This document shows positions 2,920 through 43,954 of a stretch of DNA of 64,000 bases, one piece after another. The translations under genes were made by a program, and so were the position numbers. Under the pieces are notes generated by a model. It did not search any database, was not told the origin of the DNA, and saw only the letters and a program-made list of their open reading frames with translations. Location of the stretch: positions 6,312 to 70,311 of the forward strand of contig CAWCQH010000012.1 of NCBI GenBank assembly GCA_963797585.1, in the 5' to 3' direction. Each line of letters opens with the position of its first letter. Within the stretch, counting starts at the first letter, position 1. This stretch comes from an uncultured Acidobacteriota bacterium (GTDB lineage Bacteria; Acidobacteriota; Terriglobia; Acidiferrales; UBA7541).

Positions 2920-5220
2920 ATGCGAGCAATCTGGGTGAGGGGCTCACTGATACGGATTCTCCTACCGTGCAGCTTCCTTGTAATTTCGCCATTGTTCCAT
3001 ACAGCTCGACCGCAGGGCAATTCGGTGAATCCGCTGGCGGCAACCGATCGCGTCTCCGTGAACGGCGACGATATCGGAGGCGTCGTAACGAGTTCGAAGG
3101 GGCCGGAGGCCGGTGTATGGGTGATTGCTGAAACGACTGACTTGCCGACAAAGTTTCGCAAGATCGTTGTGACGGATGACGCTGGCAGGTATCTGCTGCC
3201 GGAGTTGCCTCAGGCGAATTACAAGGTGTGGGTGCGAGGCTATGGCTTGGTGGATTCGAAACCGGTAGTGGCTACGCCGGGCAAAATACTGGCGTTGACT
3301 GCGGTCGTCGCTCCCAGCGCCCAAGCCGCAGCGCAATACTATCCCGGAGATTACTGGTATTCGCTTGTGAATCTGCCGCCCAAGAGCGCCTTCCCAATGA
3401 AGATTCGCACCAGCGGCGAGGCCGCGGCACAGGCAAATGACAACTCGAGCGGCAACTTCGCGGCGATCAAAGGTACAGAAGTCGAGTCGCAGGCTCAATG
3501 GGTCTTTCTTCTGAAGAGGGCCTGCGAGGTTTGCCATCAGATGGGCAACAAAGCGACGCGTGAAATTGAACCAGGTCTCGGCACATTCGATTCGCCCGCC
3601 CTGGCTTGGGAGCGGCGGCTTATGTCTGGCCAGGTAGGCCCACAAATGACCGGCGCTCTCAACAATTTCGGGCACGACCGTGGTTTAGCGATGTTCGCGG
3701 ATTGGAGCAATCGGATTGCCGCAGGTGAAGTACCGCCCGCGCCGCCGCGGCCCCAGGGCATTGAGCGCAACATAGTCATCACGCTATGGGATTTCGGAAC
3801 CGATAAGTCCTTCGTCCATGACGTTATGAGCACCGATGAGCGGAACCCTACGGCGAACGCCTATGGCCCGATTTATGGCCCCGACCGGGCGATCGGCGCG
3901 ATTGACGTCTTGGATCCGGTCAAGAATACAAGCTCCATGATCAATGTCCCACTGCGCAACGAAAGCGATCGCAAGCTGATGCGTCGGGTTTCGCCGCAGA
4001 CTGTCGCAGCACCGTCTCCCTACTGGGGCAATGAAATTGTCTGGAATGATCCCATCACTCCATCGTCCCCGCAAATGGACAGCAGGGGCCGCCTTTGGTT
4101 TCATGCGCAGACCCGGCCGGATCTGCCCGATTATTGCAAGGAAGGCTCCGATAATCCTTTCGCGAAGAATTTCCCGATGCCGCCCAAATCGGTTGCCCAA
4201 GGCGCCCTGAACTACGACCCCTCCACGGGAAAATTCGAAATGATCGATACCTGCTTGTCGGCCGCGCACATGATATTTGCAAACGATCAGGATCAGACTT
4301 TGTACTATGGCAACACCTCCGGCGCTCGAGGGATGGGCATAATCGCCTGGATCAAGACGCGCGTATGGGACCAGACGCACGATGCCGAGAAATCGCAAGG
4401 CTGGTGCCCGGCGATTCTTGACTACAACGGCGATGGGAAAATCGGTGCCTATACGAAGCCGGACGAGCCCCCGGACCCGAAACTCGACCGGGCTGTGATC
4501 GGGGCCAGTTCGTACGGAATCGCCGTCAGCCCTGTTGACGGCAGCCTTTGGTTTGCGGCTGGCGTTGCTTCAACCAGTACAGAGGTTCCCGGGAAGATCA
4601 TCCGTATGGTGCCCGGCGCGAATCCCCCGGCAACGTGTTTGACGGAAATTTACGAACCTCCCTTTGACAATCCTAAGCTTCCGGGCGTGGAAGCTTATTC
4701 CACCCTGGGCATCGGCATCGATACGAATGGTGTGGTGTGGACAGCGCTCGCCGGTAGCAATGATCTCGCGAGCTTCGACCGTCGGAAGTGCAAGGGCCCC
4801 CTCAGCGGTCCGGCCGCGATGGGCCAGCATTGTCCCGAGGGCTGGGCGCTTTACCCGGTTCCGGGTCCGAAATTCAAAGGAACCGACGTGCTATCCGACT
4901 CCTTTTATCAGAATTGGGTGGACCGCTACGACACGCTCGGCCTCGGCAAGAATGTGCCGATCGTAAACGGGACGGGCTCGGATTCGCTGATTGCTTTTGT
5001 GCCGGAGACGAAGAAGTTTGTCACGCTGCGGGTTCCGTACCCGCTCGATTTCTACACGCGCAGCATGAACGGTCGCATTGACGATGCGAAAGCCGGCTGG
5101 AAGGGGCGGGGATTGTGGGCCGCTGACGAAGAACGCGTCGTCTGGCATGTCGAGGGCGGAAAAGGAACGACGACTTTCGTCGCCCATTTTCAGATTAGGC
5201 CCGACCCACTCGCCAAGTGA
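2920..5220 (+). CDS. secreted carboxypeptidase-regulatory-like domain protein with one CxxCH motif and a beta-propeller-like C-terminal region
   Basis: 766 aa with a hydrophobic N-terminal signal. GVVTSSKGPEAGVWVIAETTDL..DDAGRYLLPELPQANYKVWVRGYG resembles CarboxypepD_reg. CEVCH lies at 3523-3537. GIAVSPVDGSLWFA and GIDTNGVVWTA look like propeller blades. Function unknown. Confidence 0.5.
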   Translation: MRAIWVRGSLIRILLPCSFLVISPLFHTARPQGNSVNPLAATDRVSVNGDDIGGVVTSSKGPEAGVWVIAETTDLPTKFRKIVVTDDAGRYLLPELPQANYKVWVRGYGLVDSKPVVATPGKILALTAVVAPSAQAAAQYYPGDYWYSLVNLPPKSAFPMKIRTSGEAAAQANDNSSGNFAAIKGTEVESQAQWVFLLKRACEVCHQMGNKATREIEPGLGTFDSPALAWERRLMSGQVGPQMTGALNNFGHDRGLAMFADWSNRIAAGEVPPAPPRPQGIERNIVITLWDFGTDKSFVHDVMSTDERNPTANAYGPIYGPDRAIGAIDVLDPVKNTSSMINVPLRNESDRKLMRRVSPQTVAAPSPYWGNEIVWNDPITPSSPQMDSRGRLWFHAQTRPDLPDYCKEGSDNPFAKNFPMPPKSVAQGALNYDPSTGKFEMIDTCLSAAHMIFANDQDQTLYYGNTSGARGMGIIAWIKTRVWDQTHDAEKSQGWCPAILDYNGDGKIGAYTKPDEPPDPKLDRAVIGASSYGIAVSPVDGSLWFAAGVASTSTEVPGKIIRMVPGANPPATCLTEIYEPPFDNPKLPGVEAYSTLGIGIDTNGVVWTALAGSNDLASFDRRKCKGPLSGPAAMGQHCPEGWALYPVPGPKFKGTDVLSDSFYQNWVDRYDTLGLGKNVPIVNGTGSDSLIAFVPETKKFVTLRVPYPLDFYTRSMNGRIDDAKAGWKGRGLWAADEERVVWHVEGGKGTTTFVAHFQIRPDPLAK

Positions 5221-10288: not shown

Positions 10289-10963
10289 CTAGCGGCGCCT
10301 CAGGACTTTGCGCAACGATTGGCGCACTTCCAATCCTCCATCGTAGTCTATAAATCCCTGCTTTCTGAATCGATTCATGAACAGGTTGATTCGTGGGCGC
10401 GTCGTACCGACCATCTCCGCCAGAACCTGATGGCTTAGTTTGGGAATTTCAACAACCGGCGGACCTCTCTTATCCAAGTGGGCCAGCCGCAAAAGCACAC
10501 GCGCCAGTCGCTGTTCGGCAGAAGAAGTCAGCAATTCCGCAACGTGATCCTGATACTTCTTGACGCTGGATAACAGGTAGGCCACCAGGGAATTGGACAG
10601 CTTATTCTTTTTGCGAAGCATTTGGAGCATCTTGGCTTTATGGATGGTGCGTATCGAACTGGCGGTTAACGCGACAGCCGTGGACATACGAAGGGGATAG
10701 CCTGCGAGGCAAAGCTCACCAAAGAGATCGCCGCCCCCCAGGATGGCGGTAACAGCTGGAGCCTGGTGTTTCGCTCGGCTGGTGAGCCGCACTCCTCCTT
10801 CCTGGATGTAGAAAAGTGTGTACGCAGGTGCGCCTTGTGCGTAAATGTTCTGCTTGCGCCGATAGCGCAACACCTTGCCGCCCAGGCTGGCTCCTGAAGA
10901 GAATCCGCCAAGGTGGGACCTTGTCTGTCTAGCTACCTTCATGTGTGGGCCTCTGACGCTCAT
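10289..10963 (-). CDS. Crp/Fnr family transcriptional regulator
   Basis: cNMP-binding-like beta-roll (FYIQEGGVRLT, GDLFGE) plus a C-terminal HTH (SHQVLAEMVGTTRPRINLFMNRFRKQGFIDY). Confidence 0.85.
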   Translation of the reverse strand: MSVRGPHMKVARQTRSHLGGFSSGASLGGKVLRYRRKQNIYAQGAPAYTLFYIQEGGVRLTSRAKHQAPAVTAILGGGDLFGELCLAGYPLRMSTAVALTASSIRTIHKAKMLQMLRKKNKLSNSLVAYLLSSVKKYQDHVAELLTSSAEQRLARVLLRLAHLDKRGPPVVEIPKLSHQVLAEMVGTTRPRINLFMNRFRKQGFIDYDGGLEVRQSLRKVLRRR

Positions 10964-12214: not shown

Positions 12215-14377
12215 CTAGTGCAGACTGAAGTTCATTCTGACTTGTACGTGGGCCGACGTGGGTTGACCGTTGAGTCGTGCGGGTTGGTATTTCCACATAC
12301 GCAGGCTTTCCATTGCAGCCTGTCTCAGGATTGGATTTCCCGAAAGAACCTTCATGTCACCGATCTTGCCCGTTTCGTCCACCACGGCGTCGATCAACAC
12401 GAAGCCTGAGACATTCGTCGAGCGGGCGACCGACGGATAACTTGGCGGGGGAGATGACACGAGCCTGGGCGGGTCGAGACGTTTGGTAATGTTTACAACC
12501 GGGGATGCTGGTGCAGGCGCGGAAGTTTCGAGCAATCCACTCCCAGGAGTCGGTTCCTTCGGCTGCCCTCCAAAAGATGGCGCCGGATTGCTCGCTACGT
12601 TTACAACCGGGAGCGTCGGGACCGGTACCGAGTTGGCGGCCAGGGCTTTCCCAATGTCCGAATCTCTTGTTGGGGTCCCCGCCACCGGAGGAGGAGGGGG
12701 CTCGACAGCCGGTGGTTGAGGAAATGACTTAAGAGCTGGCTTCGTTGACGGACCGGCGACAACTGACGTGCGAAGTGTCGGCAATGCCGGGGACGCGGGT
12801 GGGATGGAACGCGCGCTCACAGTCTGAGGGGCGATAATTTCGCCAGGAGTCGTGGCGATATCAGCAAAGGGAGTTGCAGCAACAACCGGGGCGGCCGTTG
12901 TTGATTGTTCCGCCTGAGAACCTGCTTTCAGGCCGCTGACCGAATGCGGCGCAGCCACTGCTGCCTTCTGGTGACGCGCCATGTAGACGCCCATCGCCAG
13001 CGCCGCCGGCACAACCGCCGCCGCGATAATCACCAGCGAAAGCCGAAGTCCTGGCTTGAGCCACCGCCGCATTAGCGATGGCTCTGCGGCACTGAATTCC
13101 TTCTCCTTCTCCGGCTGAACGCTCTCCCGCGCGACCGAAGCCACCAGAGTGTTTTTGCGGACGAAAGGAGACACTCGCGCCGCCCTAACCGGGGTGAGTG
13201 CCATTGCGGTTGCGCGGGGGCGCTCGGGAGTTTTTACGGGAGTCGTTACGGGAGCTGCTGAGGGAGAGAGCGCCGCGACCGCAACAATTTGTTCCTTCTC
13301 CGGCTTGCTTTCTTGCGTGGCAGAAAAGTCGCGATGGCTGGCCCCAACCTCCAGCGCGGGCTGTGGAGTGCTCAACACCGCCGCTGGCAGGGGCGTCCCC
13401 CTGTCTTCGACGACGTGGTGCGGCACCGGCGCGTCCATCTCGCGTGCACTCACGGCCGCCACGCTGGGGATAGAGATTAAGTGCCGGGACCTCTCCGGCT
13501 CGGGGTCATCCGAATGACTCGCCGGCGATACGGGTTTTTCCGGCAGCTTGATCCGGGCGACGGGCTCCAGCCGGAAATGGGATGCGACTGACTTGATGAC
13601 CTCCACCGGCACGACGCGAATCTGCCGCGCGCAGGCCGCAGTCAGAGCCTGATCGCAAATACTGTTGACCAGCCGGGGAATGCCCTGCGAATAGGAGTAA
13701 ATTGCCTGGACCGTCTCCGGCGGGAACAAGGTCGCCGCTTGCGAGCCTGCTCCGGCAAGTTCCAGCCGGCGCTCGATGTAAAGCCCTATGTCTTCCGCCC
13801 GGAGCGGTTCCAAATGGCAGCGAACCGCGATGCGCTGTTTCAAGGAGCGCAGCTCGACCGTGTCCAGTTTCTTGTCGAGCTCGGGCTGCCCCACCAGGAC
13901 AATCTGCGCGAGTTTCTGTTGAGCCGTTTCGAAATTCGTCAGAAGCCTGATTTCTTCGAGAACGCTGCGCGGCATCTGATGAGCCTCATCGACGATCAGC
14001 ACGGTCGTGAAGCCCTTCTCGAATTGGCTCAGCAAAAACACGTACAACGCGCGCAACAGGTTTCCCTTGCTGGGTTCCGGCACGCTCAGTCCCAACTCAA
14101 ACGCTATATAGCTCAGGAAATCGACCGTGGACAAACGAGGGCCGATGAAGTACGCGAAGGGGATCTCCTCCCGCTCCAAGCGCTCCATGAGGCAGCGCAG
14201 CACCAGGGTCTTGCCGGTGCCCACTTCACCGGTCATTACGACAAAGCCTTTCCGCAGTCGTATCGCGCCGTAAATCGAAGCCAGGGCTTCCTGGCTCTTT
14301 TCCGACGGAATCATGAAGAACGGATCGGGTGAGAGCTGGAACGGGCTGGAAATCAGGCCTAAGAATTCTTCATACAT
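12215..14377 (-). CDS. ExeA/GspA-like AAA+ ATPase fused through one TM helix and Pro-rich spacers to a TonB C-terminal domain
   Basis: 720 aa. Walker A GEVGTGKT, Walker B VLIVDEAHQ. TM helix LRLSLVIIAAAVVPAALAMGVYMA (about 12970-13045). C-terminal PPSYPSVARSTNVSGFVLIDAVVDETGKIGDMKVLSGNPILRQAAMESLRMWKYQPARLNGQP matches TonB_C. Confidence 0.7.
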   Translation of the reverse strand: MYEEFLGLISSPFQLSPDPFFMIPSEKSQEALASIYGAIRLRKGFVVMTGEVGTGKTLVLRCLMERLEREEIPFAYFIGPRLSTVDFLSYIAFELGLSVPEPSKGNLLRALYVFLLSQFEKGFTTVLIVDEAHQMPRSVLEEIRLLTNFETAQQKLAQIVLVGQPELDKKLDTVELRSLKQRIAVRCHLEPLRAEDIGLYIERRLELAGAGSQAATLFPPETVQAIYSYSQGIPRLVNSICDQALTAACARQIRVVPVEVIKSVASHFRLEPVARIKLPEKPVSPASHSDDPEPERSRHLISIPSVAAVSAREMDAPVPHHVVEDRGTPLPAAVLSTPQPALEVGASHRDFSATQESKPEKEQIVAVAALSPSAAPVTTPVKTPERPRATAMALTPVRAARVSPFVRKNTLVASVARESVQPEKEKEFSAAEPSLMRRWLKPGLRLSLVIIAAAVVPAALAMGVYMARHQKAAVAAPHSVSGLKAGSQAEQSTTAAPVVAATPFADIATTPGEIIAPQTVSARSIPPASPALPTLRTSVVAGPSTKPALKSFPQPPAVEPPPPPVAGTPTRDSDIGKALAANSVPVPTLPVVNVASNPAPSFGGQPKEPTPGSGLLETSAPAPASPVVNITKRLDPPRLVSSPPPSYPSVARSTNVSGFVLIDAVVDETGKIGDMKVLSGNPILRQAAMESLRMWKYQPARLNGQPTSAHVQVRMNFSLH

Positions 14378-14453
14378 AAAATGTCCTGGTCTGCCTACTT
14401 TCCGTGATGTGTCCTGTTATCTTTGGAATTCGCGTCGCTTTAGGCGACAAAAT

Positions 14454-15722
14454 CTACGCGCACGCTTCCTCGCCTTGGCTCGCTGGGGTTTTTGCGAGTT
14501 CCCGGGGTACCCAAAACTCGGGCATCGGGTTGGGAAATTCAAACGCAACGTCGACGCCGCGCCCCAGGCGAGCGCCGAGGAATTCCACAACGCATTCCTG
14601 AGAGTGCTCGTTCTGCTGGTTGGTGATAAGGATCTTCTGGCCTGGCTGTACCGCGGTATTCATCGAAAGCAATCCGCCGTGCGGATTGGTCGCGACGGTA
14701 TGGGCGTGCTCATAGAACGGCTCGCCGTCCGGTCCGCAGCCGTACACAAATAACGGCAGCTTAATCTGATTAATTCCGACGGGCGGCAGCTGGCCCGTTT
14801 GTCCGGCGGTTCCGTGGATGGCCGTATTGAAGCGCGGGCGCGCCTGATAGCTGCGGCGGCGGCGCTTGGTGCGGCTCTTCCGTGGAGGCTGCGGCTCGGT
14901 GGAATGGTCAATCTCATCCAGGCTGAGATCGAGTGCCACTTGCTCGACGACCTCAGCGGAAACAAATCTTTCCCGATTCATAAACGCCCGGACAAGCGAT
15001 TGTTCGCTGATTAGATTTGTCACGCGCGGAATGCCGCGCGCATGCTTGTGCACGGCTTCGATCGCTTCCGGAGTGAAGATTTCGTCCCCGTTGCCGCCCG
15101 CGATACGCAGGCGCTCGAGAATGTATCCGGAGGTCTCTTCCAGCGTCAGGGGGAGCGTCTTTGCCCGAAGCGCGATGCGCTGCCGCAACTGCCGAAGGTC
15201 GCGCTGATTCAGCTTTTGTTCGACTTCCGGCTGTCCCGCCAGCACGATCTGGAGCAGTTTGTGTGTCGAAGTCTCCAGATTCGTCAGCAAACGAATTTCT
15301 TCCAGCGCCTGAAGCGAGAGAACCTGGGCTTCATCTACAACGAGCACGGTTTGCTCGCCCGCCTGGTAGCGGTCCAGCAACCACTGATGCAACCTGAACA
15401 ACACATGGTTTCTCGCCTTCGACGTAACCGGGATGCCGAAATCGGCAATCATATAATCGAAGAGTTGCGACGCGGTCATGCGGGGATTAAAGACAAACGC
15501 TGTTGCAGCGCGCTGCTGATGCAACGAATCGAGAAGCTTATTCAGAATGGTGGTTTTGCCGGTTCCCACCTCGCCGGTCAGCAGGATAAAGCCTTTGCGC
15601 GCTTCGATCCCGTACGTCAGGCAATCCAGCGCCTCCTGCGTGCGCTTGGTCAGATACAGGTAGCGCGGGTCGGTATTGATGTTGAACGGATTCTCGTTCA
15701 GCCCAAAATGCGTCTTATACAT
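14454..15722 (-). CDS. ExeA/GspA-like AAA+ ATPase with C-terminal PilZ-like beta-barrel
   Basis: Start chosen at MYKTHFGLNENPF, parallel to the paralogue start MYEEFLGLISSPF, with GAGG 9 nt upstream. The ORF is open to 15764. Walker A GEVGTGKT, Walker B VLVVDEA. The C-terminus LPLFVYGCGPDGEPFYEHAHTVATNPHGGLLSMNTAVQPGQKILITN resembles the PilZ domains at 49044 and 50489. Confidence 0.65.
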   Translation of the reverse strand: MYKTHFGLNENPFNINTDPRYLYLTKRTQEALDCLTYGIEARKGFILLTGEVGTGKTTILNKLLDSLHQQRAATAFVFNPRMTASQLFDYMIADFGIPVTSKARNHVLFRLHQWLLDRYQAGEQTVLVVDEAQVLSLQALEEIRLLTNLETSTHKLLQIVLAGQPEVEQKLNQRDLRQLRQRIALRAKTLPLTLEETSGYILERLRIAGGNGDEIFTPEAIEAVHKHARGIPRVTNLISEQSLVRAFMNRERFVSAEVVEQVALDLSLDEIDHSTEPQPPRKSRTKRRRRSYQARPRFNTAIHGTAGQTGQLPPVGINQIKLPLFVYGCGPDGEPFYEHAHTVATNPHGGLLSMNTAVQPGQKILITNQQNEHSQECVVEFLGARLGRGVDVAFEFPNPMPEFWVPRELAKTPASQGEEACA

Positions 15723-15779
15723 GTCGGTAACCTCAGTTGTAGGGAAGATTCCCTCGAAACCCAAACATGCTCACGAACT

Positions 15780-16310
15780 TCAGCTCAGCCTGAAATCAAA
15801 GTTGGTCGTGGCTTGTGAATCGATCGGGGCCCCGTCGAGTCGCGCTGGCTCGTAGCGCCTCGCCGCCACCGCCTCCATGGCAGCTCGGGCCAGAATCGGA
15901 GCGCCCGTCAACGATTTCACGTCATACACCTGTCCTTCCGGACTGATGCGGAACTGCACTTCGACCCTGCCCGAGACAGAGCATTCCTTCGCGACCGCCG
16001 GATACATTGGATCCTTAGGCAGAATCAGCGTGGCAGGCTCAACGCTGCCAGTTGCTTGCGAAGGACCCGGCTCCGAAGGCGCCAAAGAACGCAGCATGCC
16101 ACGCGGCATTCGCAAAAGCGAACGCACGATCGGCCCTTGTTGTGGGGGCCTGGCGCTATCTGAGTCTGGCTGCCTTTCAGACGACAGGGCCGTACCCAGA
16201 CTCTCCGCCAAATGCGAGCCTGATTTGGGAGATTGCGCGGTCCCCGGGGCAGCTTCTCGCACACTTTTTGACTTCTCGGCGTGCTTACGCGCGTCAAATA
16301 CCCTGCTCAA
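15780..16310 (-). CDS. TonB_C-domain protein without recognisable signal peptide or TM segment
   Basis: 176 aa. The C-terminal 80 aa (YPAVAKECSVSGRVEVQFRISPEGQVYDVKSLTGAPILARAAMEAVAARRYEPARLDGAPI) are TonB_C-like. The N-terminal 90 aa are low-complexity Ser/Pro/Gln-rich. Confidence 0.55.
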   Translation of the reverse strand: MSRVFDARKHAEKSKSVREAAPGTAQSPKSGSHLAESLGTALSSERQPDSDSARPPQQGPIVRSLLRMPRGMLRSLAPSEPGPSQATGSVEPATLILPKDPMYPAVAKECSVSGRVEVQFRISPEGQVYDVKSLTGAPILARAAMEAVAARRYEPARLDGAPIDSQATTNFDFRLS

Positions 16311-16730
16311 CCTGGTTGTCTCCTGCGGGCGCCTATTTTCCTGAATCGATCACGACACGTTTAGCCTGTCACTCGGCCAAACATTCAGAATACGAATGTG
16401 ATGGAATATTAGGCCGGACAGAAAGGGAGTCAATCGGACGGTGCAATTTAAGGGATGTGGAAAATCGTGCCGCTGTGGAACGTATCAGTACGTTCAGTAC
16501 CAACGGATCTATGGTTATAGGGAGGTTGGGGCGCTGTTCCGCGCTTTCAGATCTGCTTCTGTGTACGGGGCACGATCTCCCCGGGCGATTTTCACAGGAT
16601 ATTCACCTGAAAATCCTTGCCCAGTCATGCCACAAGCCGTATCCTCATATTCCCCCCGCGTGCACAGCGCGCCCCAGAATTATTCTGGCGTGTTGTGCTG
16701 CCCAGATAGTTCACTTACAGCCGGTTCTCT

Positions 16731-19700
16731 ATGCCCTTGTTCTTATTGTCTTCCGGTTCATTTGAAACCGATCGCTCGTTCTCGTTCGCCAGCAGAGTTG
16801 CTCTGCTGCGTGCCTTACTTTGCCTGTTGGTGCTGGGGACTCTTACGGGCAGCGTCTTCGCCCAGTCGGGTGGACAAGTCCTTTACAACGGCATTGTCCT
16901 GCCGGCGCAGTGGCCACCCAGCCAAACACCTACGCAGTCATTCCAGGCACCGTCATATATAACCAATCCTCCTTCGGTAATTCCAATCGACTTAGGTCGC
17001 CAATTGTTTGTTGACGATTTCTTGATTCAACAGACGACGATGACTCGCACGCAACACCAAGCAGTGATGTATCCCCTGAACCCGATCATTGCCCCGGGTC
17101 CGTCAGAGTACGGTGGACTATTGATGCCCTTCAGCGGCGGGGCGTGGTTTGATCCGAGCGACCAGCTCTTCAAGATGTGGTTGTTCTGCGGAGCTGCGCC
17201 GGTTGCGGAGGTTTGTTATGAATATTCGACGGATGGCAAGAACTGGATCAGACCGGCTATCCCAGACGCTTTCGTACCGAATACCAATCAGGTCATACCG
17301 AGCGGCTTAGTCGTTTGGATGAACCTCCAGAATCCGGACCCGAATAATCCACTGCAAGCCTTGGCAAACGGAGTGGGCGGGGGAAATGGGGTCTACGCTT
17401 ACGGCAGCACCAGCGGTTTTCCGGGCAACACTTATAACTATACAAACTACTGGGTAGACGTGGTGTTTGCACAAGGAGGAGCGCCACCTCCGTCGTGTCC
17501 GTGCACCATTTGGAGCGGCACGTCAGTTCCGGCTCTGGCTGATGCGGGGCCGGATTCGCCCGTCGAGCTTGGCGTAAAGTTCACAGCCAATGTAAACGGT
17601 ACCATCAGTGGTATTCGCTTCTACAAGAGCAGCGCAAACACAGGAACGCACGTCGGCAACCTTTGGACGAGTACCGGAACTCTTCTGGCTACGGCAATCT
17701 TCAGCAATGAAACGGCTTCCGGCTGGCAGCAGGTGAACTTTCCTACTCCGGTGGCAATTACTGCGAACACCACCTATGTCGCCTCCTATCACACGAGCGT
17801 GGGACACTACAGTGCGGACCAGACCTTCTTTGCCCACAAATTCACGGCCTTCACGGTACAGCCTGCTCCACAGGTAACCCCTCCCATCCTGGCATCCTTC
17901 TCCACAGACGGCATCCATTGGCTTGGTACAAACCAGAAGCAGTATCCCATTCCTATCGTCTACGATCGAACGACGCTGTTTTGGAATCCCTTCCGGAACG
18001 TTTGGGTGGACAGCATGAAGAATTACATGACGCTTCCATCCACGCCAACACGTCCGGGATACCTGAGCCGATTTCGCAACTATGCCGAAAGTCCGGATTT
18101 GATGAACTGGACTCCTGCGGAACCGGCGAATTTTGGTACAAGCTTCTGGACCGGACCCGATGTGAACGATCCTCCCTACGCCCCCGGGGAAACTACGTTT
18201 CCTCAACTTTACAACCTCGACGCAGTCGGCTACGAAAGCGTCATGGTGGGGCTTTTCAGTTGGTTCTATCCCGGGGGGGACGAATCCGGGGGATTGCCGG
18301 GACCGGATTTGGTGGAACTCGGAGTCGGGTTCAGTCGCGACGGCTTCCAATGGGTGCGTCCGACACGCGGCAGCGGCCCCGGGCCCAACGGAGCCTTCAT
18401 TCCCGCATCCAATGTGCCTGGAACATGGAACATGGGGAACACGCAATCCGCCGGGGGATGCTTCTTGGTTGTGGGCGATGAATTGTGGTTCTACTTCAGC
18501 GGGCGGAACGATTTACATGGGAGTGATAACGCAGTGGGTTCCACCGGCTTGGCGACGCTTCGACGCGACGGCTTCTACTCCATGAATGCCGGATCAAACC
18601 CAGCCGTTTTGACAACACGGCCTGTTCAATTTTCCGGCAAATACCTCTTCGTAAACGTGAAAGATCCCCAAGGCTCGCTCCAGGTACAGGTTTTAAATTC
18701 CGCAACCGGGACGGTGCTGGCAACATCGCAATCCTTGAGCGTTGACAAGACGCTGCAGCAGGTCACGTGGAACGGATTGTCCGACTTGTCGGCGTTTGCA
18801 AATCAGCCTGTGCAATTTCAATTCACTCTGACGAGCGGCGAACTCTACTCGTTCTGGGTAAGTGCGAGCACCTCGGGCGCCAGCAATGGATACGTGGCGG
18901 CCAATGGTCCGGGCTTTACGGGTCCAACGGATACTCTTGGCGTGGGATCTTATCCGACGGCGGTCGCGACTCCAGAGATTTATCCGGTTGGGGGCACGAT
19001 CTCGAGTTCCACCAGCGTGACGATATTGACGAGAACCCTCGGCTCGACGATTTATTACACCCTCGATGGCAGCACACCAACTGCGTCCTCGCCGGTTTAT
19101 AGCGGCCCTATTACGCTCGCGTCCAGCGTGACCGTCAATGCTATTGCCATGGCTCCCGGCCTGCAAACAAGTGCGATGGACTCAGCGGCATTCATCGTTA
19201 GCAACACGCCGCCGATGGTGTCCATAACCTCTCCCGCAAATGGCCAGTTCGTTTCTTCGGCGATTTCGCTAATGGCGAGTGCCTCAGACAGCGTTGGTAT
19301 TGCGAATGTGCAGTTTCTGGTCGATGGTGTGTCTTTTGGAACCGTCAGTACTGCTCCCTACACGATGAGCCTGCAGACAACCACGTTGACCAATGCCACT
19401 CATACGATTACGGCCATTGCAACCGATAACGTGGGCAACCAGGCCACTTCGGCTGCGGTAACCGTAGCGGTTGACAACGTTACGACCGGTGCGACCGCCG
19501 GGTTGGTGGGTTACTGGAGCTTTGATTCAGCATATGTAAGCGGAACAACTCTTTTCGACCAATCGGGCAACATGAACAACGCTACCGCTTCCTCGACGAC
19601 ATCCGCCCCAGGAGAAATAGGACAAGCCCTCTCTTTCAATGGCTCTTCCAGTTCCGCCCAGGTACCCTCCAGCTTATCTACACAGGCATTTGACCTTGTG

Positions 19701-22700
19701 GGTGATTTGAGCTTTTCCCTGTGGGTGCAAACGGCCAACTCGACCCGTGATGAGGCGCTGCTCAGCAAATATACCGCCGCGGGATCAGGCTTTGGATACG
19801 TCCTGCGAACGACTCCCGCGGGCACGGTCGAACTGCAACTCGGAAACAGCAACGTCGTAGCGTCCACCATAAGCGTAGCGACTGACGTGACGAGAATCAA
19901 CGACGGCAATTGGCACCACGTTAGCGTGGTTATTAAATTGAGATCGAGTGTCACCTTTTATGTCGACGGCCAACTCAGCTCGACCTATCCGATGAATTCC
20001 GTGCCTGCGGTTGCGGTGACTTCTTTCGAGATGGGCATAACTTCCATCGCTTTGTCGGGAACATATTTTACGGGCAGCATGGATGAGGTGAGAATTTACA
20101 ACCGGGCATTATCCGCCGGCGATGTGGCTTCTCTCTTTCACAATGCGCCGAGCATTCTCCTGACGATAGCGAAAATGCACATTGGAAGTTTCGAGCAAGG
20201 GCAACAGAACGCCAGTTATTCAGTAACGGTGTCAAACGCTCCCAACGCAGGCCCAACAATCGGGCCAGTGACCGTAACCGAAACAGTCCCCCCAGGACTG
20301 GCGCTGGCGTCGATGATTGGTAGCGGATGGGTTTGTTCGGCAAACAGTTGCACGCGCAGCGATGCTCTGAATGGAGGGGCGAGCTACCCGGCTATCACGG
20401 TGACAGTCAATGTCGCGGCAAACGCGACGTCCCCACAGGTCAATCAAGCGACCGTTTCGGGCGGCGGATCGGCAACAGCAAGCGTGAATGATTCGACAGT
20501 AATAGTCCCGATCCCTCTGTTAACGATCTCGAAAACACATATTGGAAATTTCGAACAGGGCCAACAGAGCGCAGGCTACACGATAGCCATATCCAACGCT
20601 CCCAGCGCGGGCCCAACGATCGGGCCAGTAACGGTAGCCGAAACAATTCCTGTCGGGCTCACACTCGTGTCAATGACCGGTAGCGGATGGCTGTGTTCGG
20701 CAAACAGTTGCACTCGCAGCGACGCTCTGAATGGAGGGGCAAGCTACCCGGCCATCGCGGTGACAGTCAATGTCGCGGCAAACGCGACGTCCCCACAGGT
20801 CAATCAAGTGACGGTTTCGGGCGGCGGGTCGCCAACGGCAAGCGTGAATGATTCTACGGTGATAGTCCCCAGCCCTCTATTGACGATATCGAAGACGCAC
20901 ACGGGAAGTTTTCAACAGGCGCAACAGAAGGCTAGTTACGCAGTAACGGTATCCAACGCCCTCAGCGCGGGCCCAACAATCGGGCCAGTGACGGTAGCCG
21001 AAGCAATTCCTGTCGGGCTCACACTCGTGTCAATGACCGGTAACGGATGGCTGTGTTCGGCAAACAGTTGCACGCGCAGCGATGCTCTGAGTGGAGGGAC
21101 GAGCTATCCGGCCATCACGGTGACAGTCAATGTCGCGGCAAACGCGGCCTCCCCGCAGGTCAATCAGGTAACTGTTTCCGGCGGCGGGTCGGCAACGGCA
21201 AGCGTGAGCGATTCAACAGTGATAGTCCCCAGCCCTCTGTTGACGATCACGAAAACACACACGGGAAGTTTCCAACAGGCGCAACAGAACGCTAGTTACA
21301 CAGTAACCGTGTCCAACGCCCCCAGCGCGGGCCCAACGATCGGGCCAGTGACGGTAACCGAAGCAATTCCTGCCGGGCTAGCACTCGTGTCAATGACCGG
21401 TAGCGGATGGGTGTGTTCGGCAAACAGCTGCGCGCGCAGCGATGCTCTGAGTGGAGGGGCGAGCTACCCGGCCATCACGGTGACAGTCAATGTCGCGGCA
21501 AACGCGACCTCTCCGCAGGTCAATCAAGCGACCGTTTCGGGCGGCGGGTCGGCGACAGTGAGCGCGAATGACTCGACGACCATTACGGCGCCTGCCCTGA
21601 TTTCGATTGCCGTGACGCCGGGTAATCCTACGACTGAAATGGGAGGAACTCAGCAGTTTGCGGCCCTGGGGACCTACGCCGGTAGCACCACGCAGAATAT
21701 TACCTCCCAAGTTACATGGACCTCCTCGAACACATCGGTCGCGACTATTAACAGCAGCGGCCTGGCGGTCATTGTAGGACTGGGGACTACTGCCGTTTCC
21801 GCCATGCAGTATGGCGTGTCCGGAAACACGGCGCTCACTTCACAGGCACCGCCTTCCACGTGCCCTTGCATGATCTGGAGCAGTAATGCGATGCCCACTG
21901 TGGTCGATGCAGGGGCCGGGCCAGGCGTGGAGCTGGGGGTGAAGTTCACTTCGAGCAGCAGCGGTACGATCACGGGGATACGGTTTTATAAGAGCAGCGC
22001 GAACACAGGCACGCATATGGGGAATCTGTGGACGAGCGCGGGAACGCTGCTGGCAACAGCGACGTATAGCAACGAAACCGCGTCAGGGTGGCAGCAGGTG
22101 AACTTTTCCTCTGGTGTCGCGATCACGGCCAATACGGTGTATGTGGCCTCCTATTACACCAGTGTGAGCCACTTCAGCGCCGATCAGGGATTCTTTACGA
22201 CGGCAGGAGTGAGCAATCCGCCCCTGCAAGCCTTGGCGAATGCGTCTGGGGGCAATGGGTTGTACGTGTATGGCAGCGGCGGCATCTTTCCAAATAGTTC
22301 GTATAACTCGACAAACTACTGGGTGGACGTCGTATTTTCCACAACAGTAGTTTCCACATCGGTGCCCGATGTAGTGGGGTCTACGCAAGCCGCGGCGAGT
22401 GTGGCAATCACGGGCGCAGGGCTGGCGGTCGGCACAGTGACCACAGCCTCGAACCCAACGGTGCCGCCGGGTGAGGTGATCAGCGAGAATCCGAGTGCCG
22501 GGACTTCGGCAGTCTCGGGATCGGTGGTAAACCTGGTCGTCTCAACAGGTCAAGCGGGGAGTTGCCCATGCACGATCTGGAGCAGCAATGCGATTCCCTC
22601 AATGGTTGATGGGGGGCCGGATTCACCGGTGGAACTGGGTGTGAAGTTCACATCGAGCACTGGTGGGACGATCACGGGGATCAGGTTCTATAAGAGCAGC

Positions 22701-23549
22701 GCGAACACGGGAACGCATATGGGAAATCTGTGGTCGAGCACCGGGGCTTTGCTGGCGACAGCGACGTTTAGCAACGAAACGGCGTCAGGGTGGCAGCAGG
22801 TGAACTTTTCTCCCGCAGTGGCGATCAACGCCAATACGACGTATGTGGCGTCCTATCACACCGCCGTGGGGCACTACAGTGCCGACCAGGGGTTCTTTGC
22901 GGCAGGGGGCGTCGCTAATTCGCCGCTGCAAGCAATGTCGAATGGGGTAGCCGGGGGCAACGGAGTCTACGTATACGGTACCGGCGGCCTCTTCCCAGGC
23001 AATTCTTACAATTCCACAAACTACTGGGTCGATGTGGTTTTTACGCAGGCGGCCCCTCCGACGTGCCCGTGTACGATCTGGAGCAGTAATGCGATTCCCG
23101 CGACGGTTGATGGGGGGCCGGATTCACCGGTGGAACTGGGTGTGAAGTTCACATCGAGCACTGGTGGGACGATCACGGGGATCAGGTTCTATAAGAGCAG
23201 TGCGAACACGGGAACGCATATGGGAAATCTGTGGTCGAGCACCGGGACTTTGCTGGCGACAGCGACGTTTAGCAACGAAACGGCGTCAGGGTGGCAGCAG
23301 GTGAACTTTTCTCCCGCAGTGGCGATCAACGCCAATACGACGTATGTGGCGTCCTATCACACCGCCGTGGGGCACTACAGTGCCGACCAGGGGTTCTTTG
23401 CGGCAGGGGGCATAACTAATTCGCCTCTGCAAGCGCCGTCGAATGGAGCAGCCGGAGGCAATGGAGTCTATGCGTACGGCGGCGCCGGCAGCTTCCCAGG
23501 CAACACCTACAACTCCACGAGTTACTGGGTCGATGTAGTGTTTCAGTAG
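16731..23549 (+). CDS. giant (2272 aa) secreted mosaic repeat protein: N-terminal propeller-like domain, 4 DUF4082 units, chitobiase-C-like, Ig-like, LamG, 4 x DUF11-like repeats, Big_2, PASTA
   Basis: Signal peptide LLCLLVLGTLTGSVFAQS. DUF4082 cores (VELGVKFT..GIRFYKSSANTGTH.GNLW..GWQQVNF) start at about 17496, 21861, 22563 and 23064. IYYTLDGSTPTASSPVYSGPI is at about 19050. LamG (LVGYWSFDS...MDEVRIYNRALSAGDV) spans about 19500-20140. Big_2 spans about 21597-21830. PASTA (VPDVVGSTQAAASVAITGAGLAVGTV..GSVVNLVVSTG) spans 22362-22550. Confidence 0.85.
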   Translation: MPLFLLSSGSFETDRSFSFASRVALLRALLCLLVLGTLTGSVFAQSGGQVLYNGIVLPAQWPPSQTPTQSFQAPSYITNPPSVIPIDLGRQLFVDDFLIQQTTMTRTQHQAVMYPLNPIIAPGPSEYGGLLMPFSGGAWFDPSDQLFKMWLFCGAAPVAEVCYEYSTDGKNWIRPAIPDAFVPNTNQVIPSGLVVWMNLQNPDPNNPLQALANGVGGGNGVYAYGSTSGFPGNTYNYTNYWVDVVFAQGGAPPPSCPCTIWSGTSVPALADAGPDSPVELGVKFTANVNGTISGIRFYKSSANTGTHVGNLWTSTGTLLATAIFSNETASGWQQVNFPTPVAITANTTYVASYHTSVGHYSADQTFFAHKFTAFTVQPAPQVTPPILASFSTDGIHWLGTNQKQYPIPIVYDRTTLFWNPFRNVWVDSMKNYMTLPSTPTRPGYLSRFRNYAESPDLMNWTPAEPANFGTSFWTGPDVNDPPYAPGETTFPQLYNLDAVGYESVMVGLFSWFYPGGDESGGLPGPDLVELGVGFSRDGFQWVRPTRGSGPGPNGAFIPASNVPGTWNMGNTQSAGGCFLVVGDELWFYFSGRNDLHGSDNAVGSTGLATLRRDGFYSMNAGSNPAVLTTRPVQFSGKYLFVNVKDPQGSLQVQVLNSATGTVLATSQSLSVDKTLQQVTWNGLSDLSAFANQPVQFQFTLTSGELYSFWVSASTSGASNGYVAANGPGFTGPTDTLGVGSYPTAVATPEIYPVGGTISSSTSVTILTRTLGSTIYYTLDGSTPTASSPVYSGPITLASSVTVNAIAMAPGLQTSAMDSAAFIVSNTPPMVSITSPANGQFVSSAISLMASASDSVGIANVQFLVDGVSFGTVSTAPYTMSLQTTTLTNATHTITAIATDNVGNQATSAAVTVAVDNVTTGATAGLVGYWSFDSAYVSGTTLFDQSGNMNNATASSTTSAPGEIGQALSFNGSSSSAQVPSSLSTQAFDLVGDLSFSLWVQTANSTRDEALLSKYTAAGSGFGYVLRTTPAGTVELQLGNSNVVASTISVATDVTRINDGNWHHVSVVIKLRSSVTFYVDGQLSSTYPMNSVPAVAVTSFEMGITSIALSGTYFTGSMDEVRIYNRALSAGDVASLFHNAPSILLTIAKMHIGSFEQGQQNASYSVTVSNAPNAGPTIGPVTVTETVPPGLALASMIGSGWVCSANSCTRSDALNGGASYPAITVTVNVAANATSPQVNQATVSGGGSATASVNDSTVIVPIPLLTISKTHIGNFEQGQQSAGYTIAISNAPSAGPTIGPVTVAETIPVGLTLVSMTGSGWLCSANSCTRSDALNGGASYPAIAVTVNVAANATSPQVNQVTVSGGGSPTASVNDSTVIVPSPLLTISKTHTGSFQQAQQKASYAVTVSNALSAGPTIGPVTVAEAIPVGLTLVSMTGNGWLCSANSCTRSDALSGGTSYPAITVTVNVAANAASPQVNQVTVSGGGSATASVSDSTVIVPSPLLTITKTHTGSFQQAQQNASYTVTVSNAPSAGPTIGPVTVTEAIPAGLALVSMTGSGWVCSANSCARSDALSGGASYPAITVTVNVAANATSPQVNQATVSGGGSATVSANDSTTITAPALISIAVTPGNPTTEMGGTQQFAALGTYAGSTTQNITSQVTWTSSNTSVATINSSGLAVIVGLGTTAVSAMQYGVSGNTALTSQAPPSTCPCMIWSSNAMPTVVDAGAGPGVELGVKFTSSSSGTITGIRFYKSSANTGTHMGNLWTSAGTLLATATYSNETASGWQQVNFSSGVAITANTVYVASYYTSVSHFSADQGFFTTAGVSNPPLQALANASGGNGLYVYGSGGIFPNSSYNSTNYWVDVVFSTTVVSTSVPDVVGSTQAAASVAITGAGLAVGTVTTASNPTVPPGEVISENPSAGTSAVSGSVVNLVVSTGQAGSCPCTIWSSNAIPSMVDGGPDSPVELGVKFTSSTGGTITGIRFYKSSANTGTHMGNLWSSTGALLATATFSNETASGWQQVNFSPAVAINANTTYVASYHTAVGHYSADQGFFAAGGVANSPLQAMSNGVAGGNGVYVYGTGGLFPGNSYNSTNYWVDVVFTQAAPPTCPCTIWSSNAIPATVDGGPDSPVELGVKFTSSTGGTITGIRFYKSSANTGTHMGNLWSSTGTLLATATFSNETASGWQQVNFSPAVAINANTTYVASYHTAVGHYSADQGFFAAGGITNSPLQAPSNGAAGGNGVYAYGGAGSFPGNTYNSTSYWVDVVFQ
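20157..21596 (+). repeat. 4 tandem in-frame 360-bp (120-aa) DUF11-like repeats inside the giant CDS
   Basis: Unit starts at 20157, 20517, 20877 and 21237 (LLT[IA][AS]K[MT]H.G.F.Q.QQ...). Each unit carries SGW.CSANSC.RSDAL and TVTVNVAANA.SPQVNQ.TVSGGGS. Confidence 0.9.
22563..23546 (+). repeat. tandem 501-bp DUF4082 units (copies 3 and 4) with a near-identical 307-bp core
   Basis: 22604-22910 and 23105-23411 differ at only 2 positions by my alignment. The unit flanks are clearly more diverged. Confidence 0.9.
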
Positions 23550-29987: not shown

Positions 29988-32900
29988 CTATTTCTTCTCC
30001 GTAGACTTTTCGATCGAATCTCGGAGTGCCCTCGCCAAATCCCGAACGAAAGGTTCCAGCAGCATGCCCGCCGGGTAGACCCGCAGAGTCACAATATGGT
30101 GCTGCTTCGCTAGCCCGGTCCAGTCCATTGGCTCGCCGAGGTACTGGGAGTACTGCCGCAGTGGACGAAAGTCAGTGATTGTTCCAGAGTATGGCTTCGG
30201 CACGTAACTCAGTATGGCCCGGTCGTTCACATCCCAAATTTTCGCCAGCACCGAGAATTCCGAATCGCTTCCGATTTTTCTCTCAAACCAGCCCCGCCAG
30301 ACGCTGCTTCGATTCCAAAGAACTCTTAGTTTTTCCTGGATGAATTCAACTTTTTGCCCAAAGTCCAAAAGGCCGAAGTTCATACAATGAAAGGCTACTC
30401 TCTGCACCTGGTAGACAATCTTGTCGTAAAGCACGTTCCTTCGGATCTTTGCCCAATTGACGGTATCGAACAAAGCGAGCAGAGCGACCTCTTCCCCTTG
30501 GGCCGTGAGGCGCTGCGCCATCTCAAGCGCCACCGTGCCGCCCATGCAATAGCCCCCGAGGAAATAGGGGCCGTGAGGCTGCACGCGCCGCAGCTCCTTG
30601 ACGTAAAGCTCGGCCATGTCCTCGATTCGCGTGAGTAGCGGACGCCGGCCGTCGAGCCCCTGCGACTCCAGCCCGTAAAATGGCTGATCGGCGCCCAAAC
30701 GTTGCGAAAGCGCGCGGTAAATCAAAACACTTCCGCCGCCTCCGTGAATGCAAAAGAAGGGAGGGCGCGAGCCGGCCGACTGGATCGTGACCAGCGGGCT
30801 CCAGCCACCCGCTTCGCCCCTATTGTCCAGAACATCGGCTAACTGCTCGATGGTCTGGGCTTTGAATAGAGTCGCGAGTGGAAGATTGGCATGGAATTCC
30901 CTTTCGATGCGGGCGAACAGCCGAACCGCGAGCAGCGAATTGCCGCCAAGGTCGAAGTAGTTTTGTCGAATGCCGATCGGCGCCACGCCGAGCAACTCCT
31001 CCCACAACTTCGTCAGCCGCTTCTCAGTGTCATTTCGAGCGACTGTGCTCTTTTCCTCGGCGCCAGTCATAGGCGCGGCGGCTTTCGCTTTCACGGGAGC
31101 TGAAATCGGTAGTTCGGCGACGCGCCGATCGGGATCGTGTGTCATCGCCTGAATTATGTTGCAGTAATCACAGAGAACGCGCCGAATCGTAGCCGGCTCG
31201 AAAAGGGCGGCATTGTATTCCAGCTGCAGCCGCACGCCTTCGGCTCTTTCGATAATGCCCAGCTGCATTTCAAACGGCGTTCCCAACCCAAAGGTAGGCA
31301 TGGGTGTAATAGTCAGATGTTGCAACTGGCGAGGCTGCAGAAACGCCGTCTGGTAGAAAAAATAAAACTGGAACAGCGGGTTGCGTCCATGCACGGATCG
31401 CACTTTCAGCTCATCGAGCAACATTTCGAACGGTAGCTCGGCGTGAGCCAGCGCGTTGAGCGTCACGTCCCGCACGCGAGCCAGTGTCTCGCGCAGGGTG
31501 GGATTCCCTCCCGTTTCCACATGCAGCGCTACGGGGCCCGAAAAGGGCCCGATCAGCCCTTCCGTCTCGGTGCGCCGGTTTGCCACAGGCGACCCTACCG
31601 TGACTTCCGTTTGATCGGCGTACCGCGACAGCAGAATCACGAAACCCGTGAGCAGCGTCATGAACATCGTCACGTTTTCCGACTGGCTCGCGGATTTGAG
31701 AGCGGCCGTTAAATCCTGCGGAAGAAGAATCGTTTCAAGGCGGGATTCAAGCGAAATGCGATGGCTCGGCGGATGATCGGTGGGAAAATCGAGGATTTTC
31801 AGCGAGTCTGCAAGCTGCTTCGTCCAAAACTCAAGATGCTCGCGCGCGGCATCGGACGCAAGCCAGTCGCCCTGCCACGCTGCGAAGTCCCCGTATTGGA
31901 TGGGAAGCGCCGAGTAATCCGGCTTTGCACCCTGGACAATCGCATCATAAATGGACCAGAGCTCCTGTTGAAACACGTTATGAGACCATCCATCCGCAAT
32001 GATGTGATGCATGGTCACCACTAGGACATGATGCTCGCTGTCCAAGTGGAACAACCTTGCTCGAAAAACCGGACCCCTCCCTAGATCGAAAGGCCGCTGG
32101 GCCTCTTCTCTCACGAGCCGCTCCACATTCGCTTCGGCGGCCGCGCCGTTGGAATTCTGAAGATCTACGACTTCTAGCGTGCACTTCCCGAGGGGTGAAA
32201 TGATCTGGGTCAACTTGCCGTCGCTCTCCTCGAAGCTGGTACGAAGAATTTCGTGCCTTCCGGCAAGCGTGCGGAAGCTTTCGTCGAGGGCTTTTTCCGA
32301 CAAAGTCCCCGTCAGCCGGACGCAAGCCGGCATGTTGAAAGCGGCGTTCCCGGGCGCGAATTTTGAAAGCAGCCAGAAACGCTCCTGGGCAGCACTGGCC
32401 GGCATCGCGTAGAGTTCAACCTCGGAAGCGGCCGTCGCAGACGACTCCGTGGCGGAGACGCCGGCCTCGGGGCCAGGTAACGCGGAATCGGGCGAAGAAC
32501 GGGCGAAGAACCGGGCGAAGGACCTCGATGCGAAGAAAGCTGCGATAGCTTGCGGGTCGGATCGCTCACGATTCCTTCCAGGAGTTCCTGGAAATCACGC
32601 AGCATTCGCTGTGCGGTAGCTTCCTGATAGAGGTCGGTGTTGTATTCAATCGAAAGACGCCAGCCCGGCCTCGCGCTCGACCATAAAGAAATTCAGATCG
32701 TAAAGCGCTCCCTGGGACTTCGACGGCATCGTCGACATCTTGATCCCGGCAAACTCAAACACGAATTCCGCAGCTCGCGCGTATTCGCGCTGGCAAATGA
32801 AGTTGATGCGGAAGAATGGTTCCTCAAACGTTTCCGCTGCGGGCCGCAAGGCCTTAATCACATTTTCAAAAGGAACATCCTGATTGGCGAATGCATCCCA

Positions 32901-43941: not shown

Positions 43942-43954
43942 AGCAGTGCGAAGA

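Follow-up and report, generated by a model that had tools for sequence, protein, structure and literature searches.

A fixed three-gene module

Why should a cytoplasmic ATPase of the ExeA/GspA type carry the C-terminal domain of TonB at the end of a membrane-anchored arm, and why should its gene stand next to that of a paralogue ending in a PilZ-like barrel? The question is raised by a stretch of 64,000 nucleotides from an uncultured Acidobacteriota bacterium (GCA_963797585.1, contig CAWCQH010000012.1, positions 6,312 to 70,311; hereafter the window), in which three co-directional genes on the minus strand, here called a, b and c, encode this unusual combination. Here, I show that the trio is a conserved module, and I tentatively propose that it is a self-contained trans-envelope assembly or anchoring complex of the GspA/GspB (ExeA/ExeB) type, evolved from an ExeA-like ATPase of XrtA/PEP-CTERM exopolysaccharide (EPS) loci. 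ATPases of the ExeA/GspA family are widespread, and their mechanism, the role of the ATPase and the way in which they recognise partners are poorly understood. The module shows the family to be modular, in that its periplasmic head is exchangeable (TonB_C in this case) and a soluble paralogue can bear a PilZ barrel; it is also common in peat and soil Acidobacteriota, whose envelope biology is almost unexplored.

The open reading frame (ORF) listing confirms the three genes as the original prediction had described them. Gene a (15780..16310) encodes a soluble protein of 176 residues, in which a disordered linker joins a GspB-like N-terminal motif to a TonB_C domain; gene b (14454..15722) a soluble ExeA/GspA-type AAA+ ATPase of 422 residues with a C-terminal PilZ-like domain; and gene c (12215..14377) a bitopic ExeA/GspA-type ATPase-TonB_C fusion of 720 residues. 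The domains that had been read from the sequence hold as well, namely two ExeA-like ATPases and two TonB_C domains by Pfam, and a PilZ-like fold by structure comparison. The longest ORF of b extends over 14454-15764; the ATG at 15722 is the start in homologues and in public gene calls, and the exact 422-residue product is found in public collections. With this start, 76 bp separate c from b and 57 bp separate b from a. In public annotation the module proteins have only unspecific names, 'general secretion pathway protein A' for instance.

Loci for the study of conservation came from a metagenome scan anchored on the unique C-terminal domain of b, together with the loci of exact look-up. A c-type ATPase gene lies immediately downstream of b in every testable locus (31/31), and a gene for a TonB_C protein of type a immediately upstream (24/24). 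The a-b-c trio is a conserved module of fixed order, and the neighbourhood whose recurrence the original prediction had wished to see examined is indeed kept. One locus (L124, 6107-11824) holds a variant, in which a TonB_C protein of 300 residues lacking the N-terminal motif is followed by a b-type ATPase (424 residues), an extra ATPase of 339 residues, an ORF of 162 residues and a c-type fusion (607 residues). The 162-residue product has a weak likeness to the PilZ-like barrel, with RRSTR right before strand beta1; as a canonical PilZ it is a weak candidate (hhalign E 0.003, no Pfam match) and was set aside.

The genes flanking the module are unrelated between loci (e.g., GcpE, cytochrome oxidase, DEAD helicase), no family being present in more than four of them. 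The module had been suspected of serving the divergently transcribed gene at 16731-23549 (plus strand), which encodes a secreted protein of 2272 residues. Since the flanks differ completely across loci, this giant protein is not a conserved partner, and the suggestion was rejected. The protein itself comprises five DUF4082 domains together with Laminin_G_3, Big_7, CHB_HEX_C_1, PASTA and Big_2, and has four near-identical internal repeats of ~100 residues each.

Protein c: an ATPase with a TonB_C head

The domain matches and the hydropathy profile support for protein c a cytoplasmic ATPase, one transmembrane (TM) helix and a periplasmic TonB_C, which is the topology first proposed for it. The ATPase domain (residues 1-270; 13568..14377, minus strand, as are all module features) matches AAA_22 over residues 42-171 (E 3e-26) and TIGR03015 with 245 bits. 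The cytoplasmic linker that follows (residues 271-439; 13061..13567) is rich in Pro and Ala (13.5% and 14.7%), is weakly conserved among homologues and has no Pfam match at E<=10. Hydropathy reveals exactly one strong hydrophobic segment, the TM helix (residues 440-468; 12974..13060; KD19 2.48), whose sequence (LRLSLVIIAAAVVPAALAMGVYMA) contains no His; exactly one TM helix is also found in 23 of 25 full-length c orthologues. Beyond the membrane, a periplasmic spacer with 19.4% Pro (residues 469-642; 12452..12973) leads to the TonB_C domain (residues 643-719; 12221..12451), which is canonical, carries the YP motif and is recognised by PF03544 (E 1e-15) as well as by TIGR01352 (E 2e-10, above cutoff).

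Both c and b possess Walker A (GEVGTGKT) and Walker B (VDEA), and these motifs do not vary across 35 and 42 homologues. Pfam finds no PG_binding_1 (PF01471) in either protein. Fusions of AAA_22 with TonB_C occur in at least 120 protein clusters, at identities down to ~39%.

Protein b: a soluble paralogue with a divergent PilZ barrel

Protein b has no TM helix by hydropathy. Its ATPase domain (residues 1-268; 14919..15722) has an AAA+ fold and is TIGR03015-like (AAA_22 E 1e-26; TIGR03015 265 bits). It is joined by a disordered linker rich in Arg and Lys (residues 270-314; 14781..14915; ~21% R+K; predicted local distance difference test, pLDDT, <50) to a divergent PilZ-like beta-barrel of six strands (residues 322-405; 14508..14759); the final ~95 residues are strongly conserved among homologues.

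Direct sequence detection of this barrel failed. Pfam PilZ has no match on the C-terminus of b even at E<=10, a precomputed PilZ match is absent from all of ~120 homologues of b, a sequence search of the domain against the PDB returned nothing, and the hhalign comparison with Alg44 gave an anchor of 9 residues only. What supports the assignment is thus fold comparison together with transitive homology. In the AlphaFold2 (AF2) model of the barrel alone six strands are formed with a core pLDDT of ~95, and the top ~30 Foldseek matches in the PDB are all PilZ domains (E from 4e-4, TM-score 0.5-0.6), including Alg44, BcsA, MrkH, MotI, YcgR and PlzA, with the PilZ domains of Alg44 and BcsA as the best. 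An exhaustive profile search with the domain retrieved 1197 representatives, mostly stand-alone proteins of 115-170 residues, and Pfam PilZ (PF07238) recognises 25 of 60 sampled members of these (best E 8e-8). The profile search envisaged at the outset gave a divided answer, AAA_22 being detected on b and PilZ on 25 of 60 relatives, not on b itself. Judged by its fold and by these relatives, the C-terminal domain of b is a divergent PilZ domain.

Whether it senses cyclic di-GMP (c-di-GMP), as the original prediction had supposed, is a different matter. No RxxxR lies within 14 residues of beta1 in any of 42 b homologues; the nearest one is found 21-39 residues before that strand, inside the disordered basic linker, and in 32 of the 42 only. 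Aligned with the verified Alg44 sequence, b reads x-G-I-x-Q where RxxxR would stand and T-N-x-R/H-G-G where DxSxxG would, the D being replaced by T or V and the S by a variable residue. As the canonical positions are not kept, c-di-GMP sensing by b cannot be inferred from them and is, from its sequence, at most possible; of the supposed c-di-GMP input the PilZ fold stands, the canonical binding-motif positions do not, and the idea is weakened. Motif-less PilZ proteins, such as the PilZ of Xanthomonas, act as adaptors for the PilB ATPase.

Two further features of b are an invariant Cys (SQEC) inside the barrel and a conserved C-terminal tripeptide, A-C-A (14454-14465, minus strand), which follows a variable acidic tail. 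The stand-alone relatives make up a small PilZ-like family (P0300-P0439, ~1200 representatives) with RRxxxR and a variant (V/I)-N-A-x-G-G, 35 of the 60 sampled escaping Pfam PilZ; in 57 of the 60, RRxxxR stands 6-10 residues ahead of beta1. No synteny of these relatives with ExeA-type ATPases was found.

Protein a and a shared N-terminal peptide

Neither a TM helix nor a signal peptide is present in protein a (maximal KD19 0.94), and a hydrophobic segment occurs in 1 of 24 a orthologues only, the maximal ORF included. The TonB_C domain of a (residues 101-175; 15786..16010; PF03544 E 1.5e-15; TIGR01352 above cutoff) would therefore be cytoplasmic. The other distinctive feature of a is its N-terminus (16263..16310), fMet-S-R-V-F-D-A-R-K-H-A-E-K-S-K-S, a putative docking peptide for ExeA-type ATPases. 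This motif sits at the start codon and is present in 27 of 31 a-type proteins; S2, F5, A7, R8 and A11 are invariant in 22 distinct a orthologues. Its general form may be written M-S-x-[IV]-[FLHYW]-[DE]-A-[LR]-[KR]-x-[AS]-E.

The same type of motif heads three other groups of proteins: 35 of 49 kinase-like (TIGR03018-like) neighbours of the short EPS-locus ATPase ('MSRIHEALKKAEQERA'), 24 of 109 stand-alone PilZ relatives and, in other phyla, the GspB-type proteins encoded directly downstream of TM-bearing GspA-type ATPases (L076, L077, L083). The GspB-type protein of L077 matches Pfam T2SSB (E 4e-14) and begins with 'MSFILDALRKSENER'; related forms are seen in L061 and L082. Among all 4666 ORFs of at least 100 residues in the fetched loci the motif is found in 52, of which 50 are accounted for by 18 a-type proteins, 31 kinase-like neighbours and one small PilZ-like ORF; the other two, against a background of 4614, are the GspB of L077 and one further a-like ORF. 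The GspB of E. coli K-12, which is too divergent, lacks the motif, and the GspB-like genes of L076, L077 and L083 were compared instead. Besides the window and the sites downstream of the ATPase genes in these three loci, the motif was recorded at L046:10972.

The N-terminus is the sole cytoplasmic part of GspB (PMC9239104). As GspB shares the motif, the peptide would dock onto ExeA-family ATPases, and on the same evidence protein a would be the GspB-equivalent of the module. More broadly, to judge from the proteins that bear it, the peptide may be a general docking tag for ATPases of the ExeA family. No description of the motif was found in the literature. One and the same peptide on GspB of the secretion system of type II (T2SS), on kinases of EPS loci and on the module offers a concrete hypothesis for partner recognition, which the shared motif makes directly testable; this is perhaps the most useful by-product of the analysis.

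Ties to exopolysaccharide loci

The ATPase domains of both proteins match NCBIfam TIGR03015 end to end (c, 244.5 bits; b, 265.3 bits) and bear the ExeA N-terminal signature FGLxxxPF. They are 40% identical to each other, as the TonB_C domains of a and c are 39% identical; a and b together thus mirror c minus its membrane anchor.

A profile scan of genome contigs with the c alignment retrieved mostly short, ATPase-only paralogues, which do not belong to the module and were used for context. In Acidobacteriota, these paralogues of ~300 residues have a TIGR03007 chain-length determinant directly upstream and a TIGR03018 tyrosine autokinase directly downstream, and their loci also hold a Wza-like exporter (TIGR03027), a priming glycosyltransferase (TIGR03013), the exosortase XrtA, PrsT and a UpxY-like antiterminator. 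One c-type fusion (L002) is itself part of such a locus for polysaccharide export, and a true PilZ gene lies 2 kb upstream. Given the TIGR03015 ties, the EPS loci of the short paralogues and L002, the module looks like an offshoot of the EPS-locus ATPase that is now autonomous; the window lacks the genes of an EPS locus (chain-length determinant, tyrosine kinase, Wza-like exporter, exosortase).

Among the short TIGR03015-type ATPases (L005-L084), two groups can be told apart by the genes of their EPS loci: in one these include XrtA exosortase, PrsT and an O-antigen-ligase-like gene, in the other an aminotransferase, an oxidoreductase and a UpxY/NusG-like antiterminator. The ATPase domain of b is nearer to one of the groups, that of c to the other.

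Comparison with known systems

The original prediction knew of no described system with this layout. Searches of the literature on the AAA_22+TonB_C fusion, on TIGR03015 and on ExeA combined with PilZ found nothing relevant to the layout, and the three-gene arrangement, with its true TonB_C head, its PilZ-bearing soluble paralogue and its TM-less GspB-like TonB_C protein, appears undescribed. The general logic, however, is known: an ExeA-type ATPase works with a TonB-like partner, and fusions of both exist.

In ExeA/ExeB (GspA/GspB) of the T2SS of Aeromonas and Vibrio, as in c, a cytoplasmic AAA+ domain of the ExeA family is linked across the membrane by one TM helix to a periplasmic effector, the genes of ATPase and partner are adjacent, and the partner bears the same type of N-terminal motif. 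The ATPase domain of ExeA is needed for the complex with ExeB, and the ExeAB complex assembles the secretin (PMC4098917). ExeB, which has a Pro-rich region, was first described as 'TonB-like' (Howard 1996, as cited in PMC4098917). Natural GspA-GspB fusions of varied domain content, joining the ATPase to the periplasmic part of its partner, have arisen repeatedly (PMC9239104; see also PMC4098917), and the build of c resembles theirs too. The module differs from GspA/GspB in its true TonB_C head, instead of the PG_binding_1/peptidase-like domains of GspA or the HR/T2SSB of GspB; in the additional soluble ATPase paralogue with its PilZ barrel; in a partner, a, that has TonB_C and, unlike GspB, neither TM helix nor T2SSB domain; in the lack of T2SS or secretin genes nearby; and in its phylum, Acidobacteriota rather than Proteobacteria.

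Members of TIGR03015, the best end-to-end match of the b and c ATPases, share with them the FGLxxxPF signature and a neighbouring gene whose product has an MSRIxEALKKAE-type N-terminus. They are, however, soluble ATPases of ~300 residues without TonB_C, TM helix or PilZ, encoded between chain-length-determinant and tyrosine-kinase genes, whereas the window ATPases stand outside an EPS locus and below the family cutoff.

With TonB, protein c shares the single TM helix, the Pro-rich periplasmic spacer and the canonical TonB_C. It departs from TonB in a cytoplasmic part of ~440 residues with an AAA+ ATPase, where TonB has a short stub, and full-length TonB models fall well short of cutoff (22.6 against 265 bits). 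In the TM helix of E. coli TonB an S-x3-H signature is needed for coupling to ExbB/ExbD; the TM helix of c lacks it, and a has no TM helix at all. Nor are exbB or exbD nearby. Searches for ExbB, ExbD, TolQ and TolR found none in the window (phmmer seeded with the E. coli proteins, E<=10, run without a positive control; Pfam on the larger ORFs), in agreement with the absence of exbB and exbD noted originally, and none in ~487 kb of module loci (phmmer, E<=10, likewise without a positive control).

The barrel of b, finally, resembles the PilZ receptors Alg44, BcsA, YcgR and MrkH in its six strands and in the GG that opens beta3; it differs from them in the replaced motif positions and in escaping direct detection by Pfam.

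What the module may do

The account tentatively favoured here is that of a GspA/GspB-type complex. In such a complex, c would sit in the inner membrane with its AAA+ domain in the cytoplasm, and its Pro-rich arm would span the periplasm and carry the TonB_C head. This head would replace the peptidoglycan-binding domain of ExeA and dock, by beta-strand pairing, on an outer-membrane or periplasmic partner encoded elsewhere. The soluble paralogue b would co-assemble with the ATPase domain of c, its divergent PilZ barrel serving as a regulatory or adaptor module, and a, by way of the N-terminal peptide it has in common with GspB-type partners, would bind to the ATPase(s). Nucleotide-dependent oligomerisation in the cytoplasm could then control the clustering or anchoring of the periplasmic arms, most likely so as to build a channel or exporter of the outer membrane or to keep it stable. 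From what was observed, namely which domains are present, how c lies in the membrane, the fixed trio, the family links and the shared motif, I infer the hetero-oligomer of b and c, the docking of a by its N-terminus and the role in assembly or anchoring.

Several points weigh against this account. Neither ATPase domain reaches the TIGR03015 cutoff of 324.5 bits (nor, at 279-302 bits, do the short paralogues from true EPS loci of Acidobacteriota). Neither a secretin nor a T2SS gene is present in the window or, for the 8 annotated loci, within +-10 kb of the module, though a secretin could be encoded elsewhere; no pilus gene is beside the module in these 8, nor are polysaccharide-export genes in 7 of them, L002 being the exception; with no target-type genes next to the module, synteny lends the presumed target no support, L002 apart. 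The comparison of the motif with GspB comprises only three to five GspB-like examples. Moreover, every GspB has a TM helix, and the GspAB model does not explain a TM-less a with a cytoplasmic TonB_C, a feature that is left unexplained by all models considered.

The ties to EPS loci could also be read more literally, the module being a c-di-GMP-controlled regulator of the export of EPS or another surface polymer that acts in trans on a Wzc/Wza- or PEP-CTERM-type machine, with the PilZ domain of b sensing c-di-GMP and the TonB_C of c contacting the outer-membrane exporter. Both ATPase domains do have their nearest relatives among the ATPases of EPS loci, L002 combines a fusion in such a locus with a bona fide PilZ gene close by, the barrel of b is closest to Alg44 and BcsA, both receptors in polysaccharide synthesis, and the Arg-rich linker retains an RxxxR in 32 of 42 homologues. 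Yet the canonical c-di-GMP positions of b are lost (no proximal RxxxR in 42 homologues; D and S replaced), synteny with EPS genes is missing in 7 of 8 annotated loci, and an Rfam scan of the region found no c-di-GMP riboswitch, nor any other RNA; I regard this regulator as a possibility of rather low probability. It is unlikely that c is an ATP-driven analogue of TonB, in which ATP replaces ExbB/ExbD and the proton-motive force (PMF) in pulling on TonB-box receptors of the outer membrane, with a and b as regulators. In its favour are the canonical TonB_C with its YP motif, borne by a Pro-rich arm that follows the one TM helix, the intact and invariant Walker motifs of c, the TM helix without S-x3-H and the lack of ExbB/ExbD matches in the window and the related ~487 kb; in L001 and L003, the module also has genes of the CarboxypepD_reg/TonB-dependent-receptor-like kind in its vicinity. 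These receptor-like neighbours, however, are not conserved, and genes of this kind are very abundant in Acidobacteriota anyway. The 170-residue disordered linker between the ATPase and the TM helix of c would be a poor transmitter of force, and the best-studied relatives, ExeAB and GspAB, act as assembly scaffolds, not as energy transducers (PMC4098917, PMC9239104). If the TonB_C of c did engage outer-membrane receptors, the module would stand as the first alternative to TonB energy transduction that is tied to ATP instead of being driven by the PMF.

A broader version is quite doubtful. A hetero-oligomer of the AAA+ domains of b and c would drive TonB-box proteins without ExbB/ExbD or PMF, gated by a and by the PilZ of b; as a separate point, the N-terminal peptide, MSxI(F/L/H)(D/E)A(L/R)(K/R)xAE, would be a general tag that marks the clients of ExeA-family ATPases, namely GspB, bacterial tyrosine kinase (BY-kinase)-like, TonB_C and PilZ proteins. 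A cytoplasmic system acting on nucleic acids (AAA_22 of the TniB/MuB/ORC kind) or an anti-phage defence module is very improbable. The whole-protein fold search of b does return Cdc6/ORC, RuvB, MuB and TnsC, and PADLOC gives weak matches to P-loop proteins in the region; the former reflect the generic AAA+ core only, and the latter, with scores <=24 bits, are P-loop noise alone, so that a defence system is disfavoured. It is the ExeA/TIGR03015 family that the ATPase domains match over their full length, c is anchored in the membrane with its TonB_C in the periplasm, and nuclease, transposase or DNA-binding partners are lacking.

Other features of the window

About 95 nt upstream of gene a lies a candidate sigma70-like promoter (16405..16433, minus strand), TTGACT-16-TAATAT, recognised by a consensus match only (9 of 12 positions). 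Downstream of c, at a distance of ~1.3 kb, a Crp/Fnr-type regulator (10289-10963, minus strand; cNMP_binding and HTH_Crp_2) is encoded, which is not conserved at this place. On the plus strand, 2920-5220 encodes a CarboxypepD_reg protein of 766 residues, homologous to four tandem genes of ~760 residues in L003/L004 (12331-22083). The latter are directly downstream of the module and may encode outer-membrane proteins; the loci are too few for a statement on synteny. In a nonribosomal peptide synthetase/polyketide synthase (NRPS/PKS) cluster at ~29988-45571, an NRPS AMP-binding domain is split over two overlapping ORFs (33938-37187, minus strand), which cover profile positions 2-196 and 201-384, suggesting a frameshift or an assembly error.

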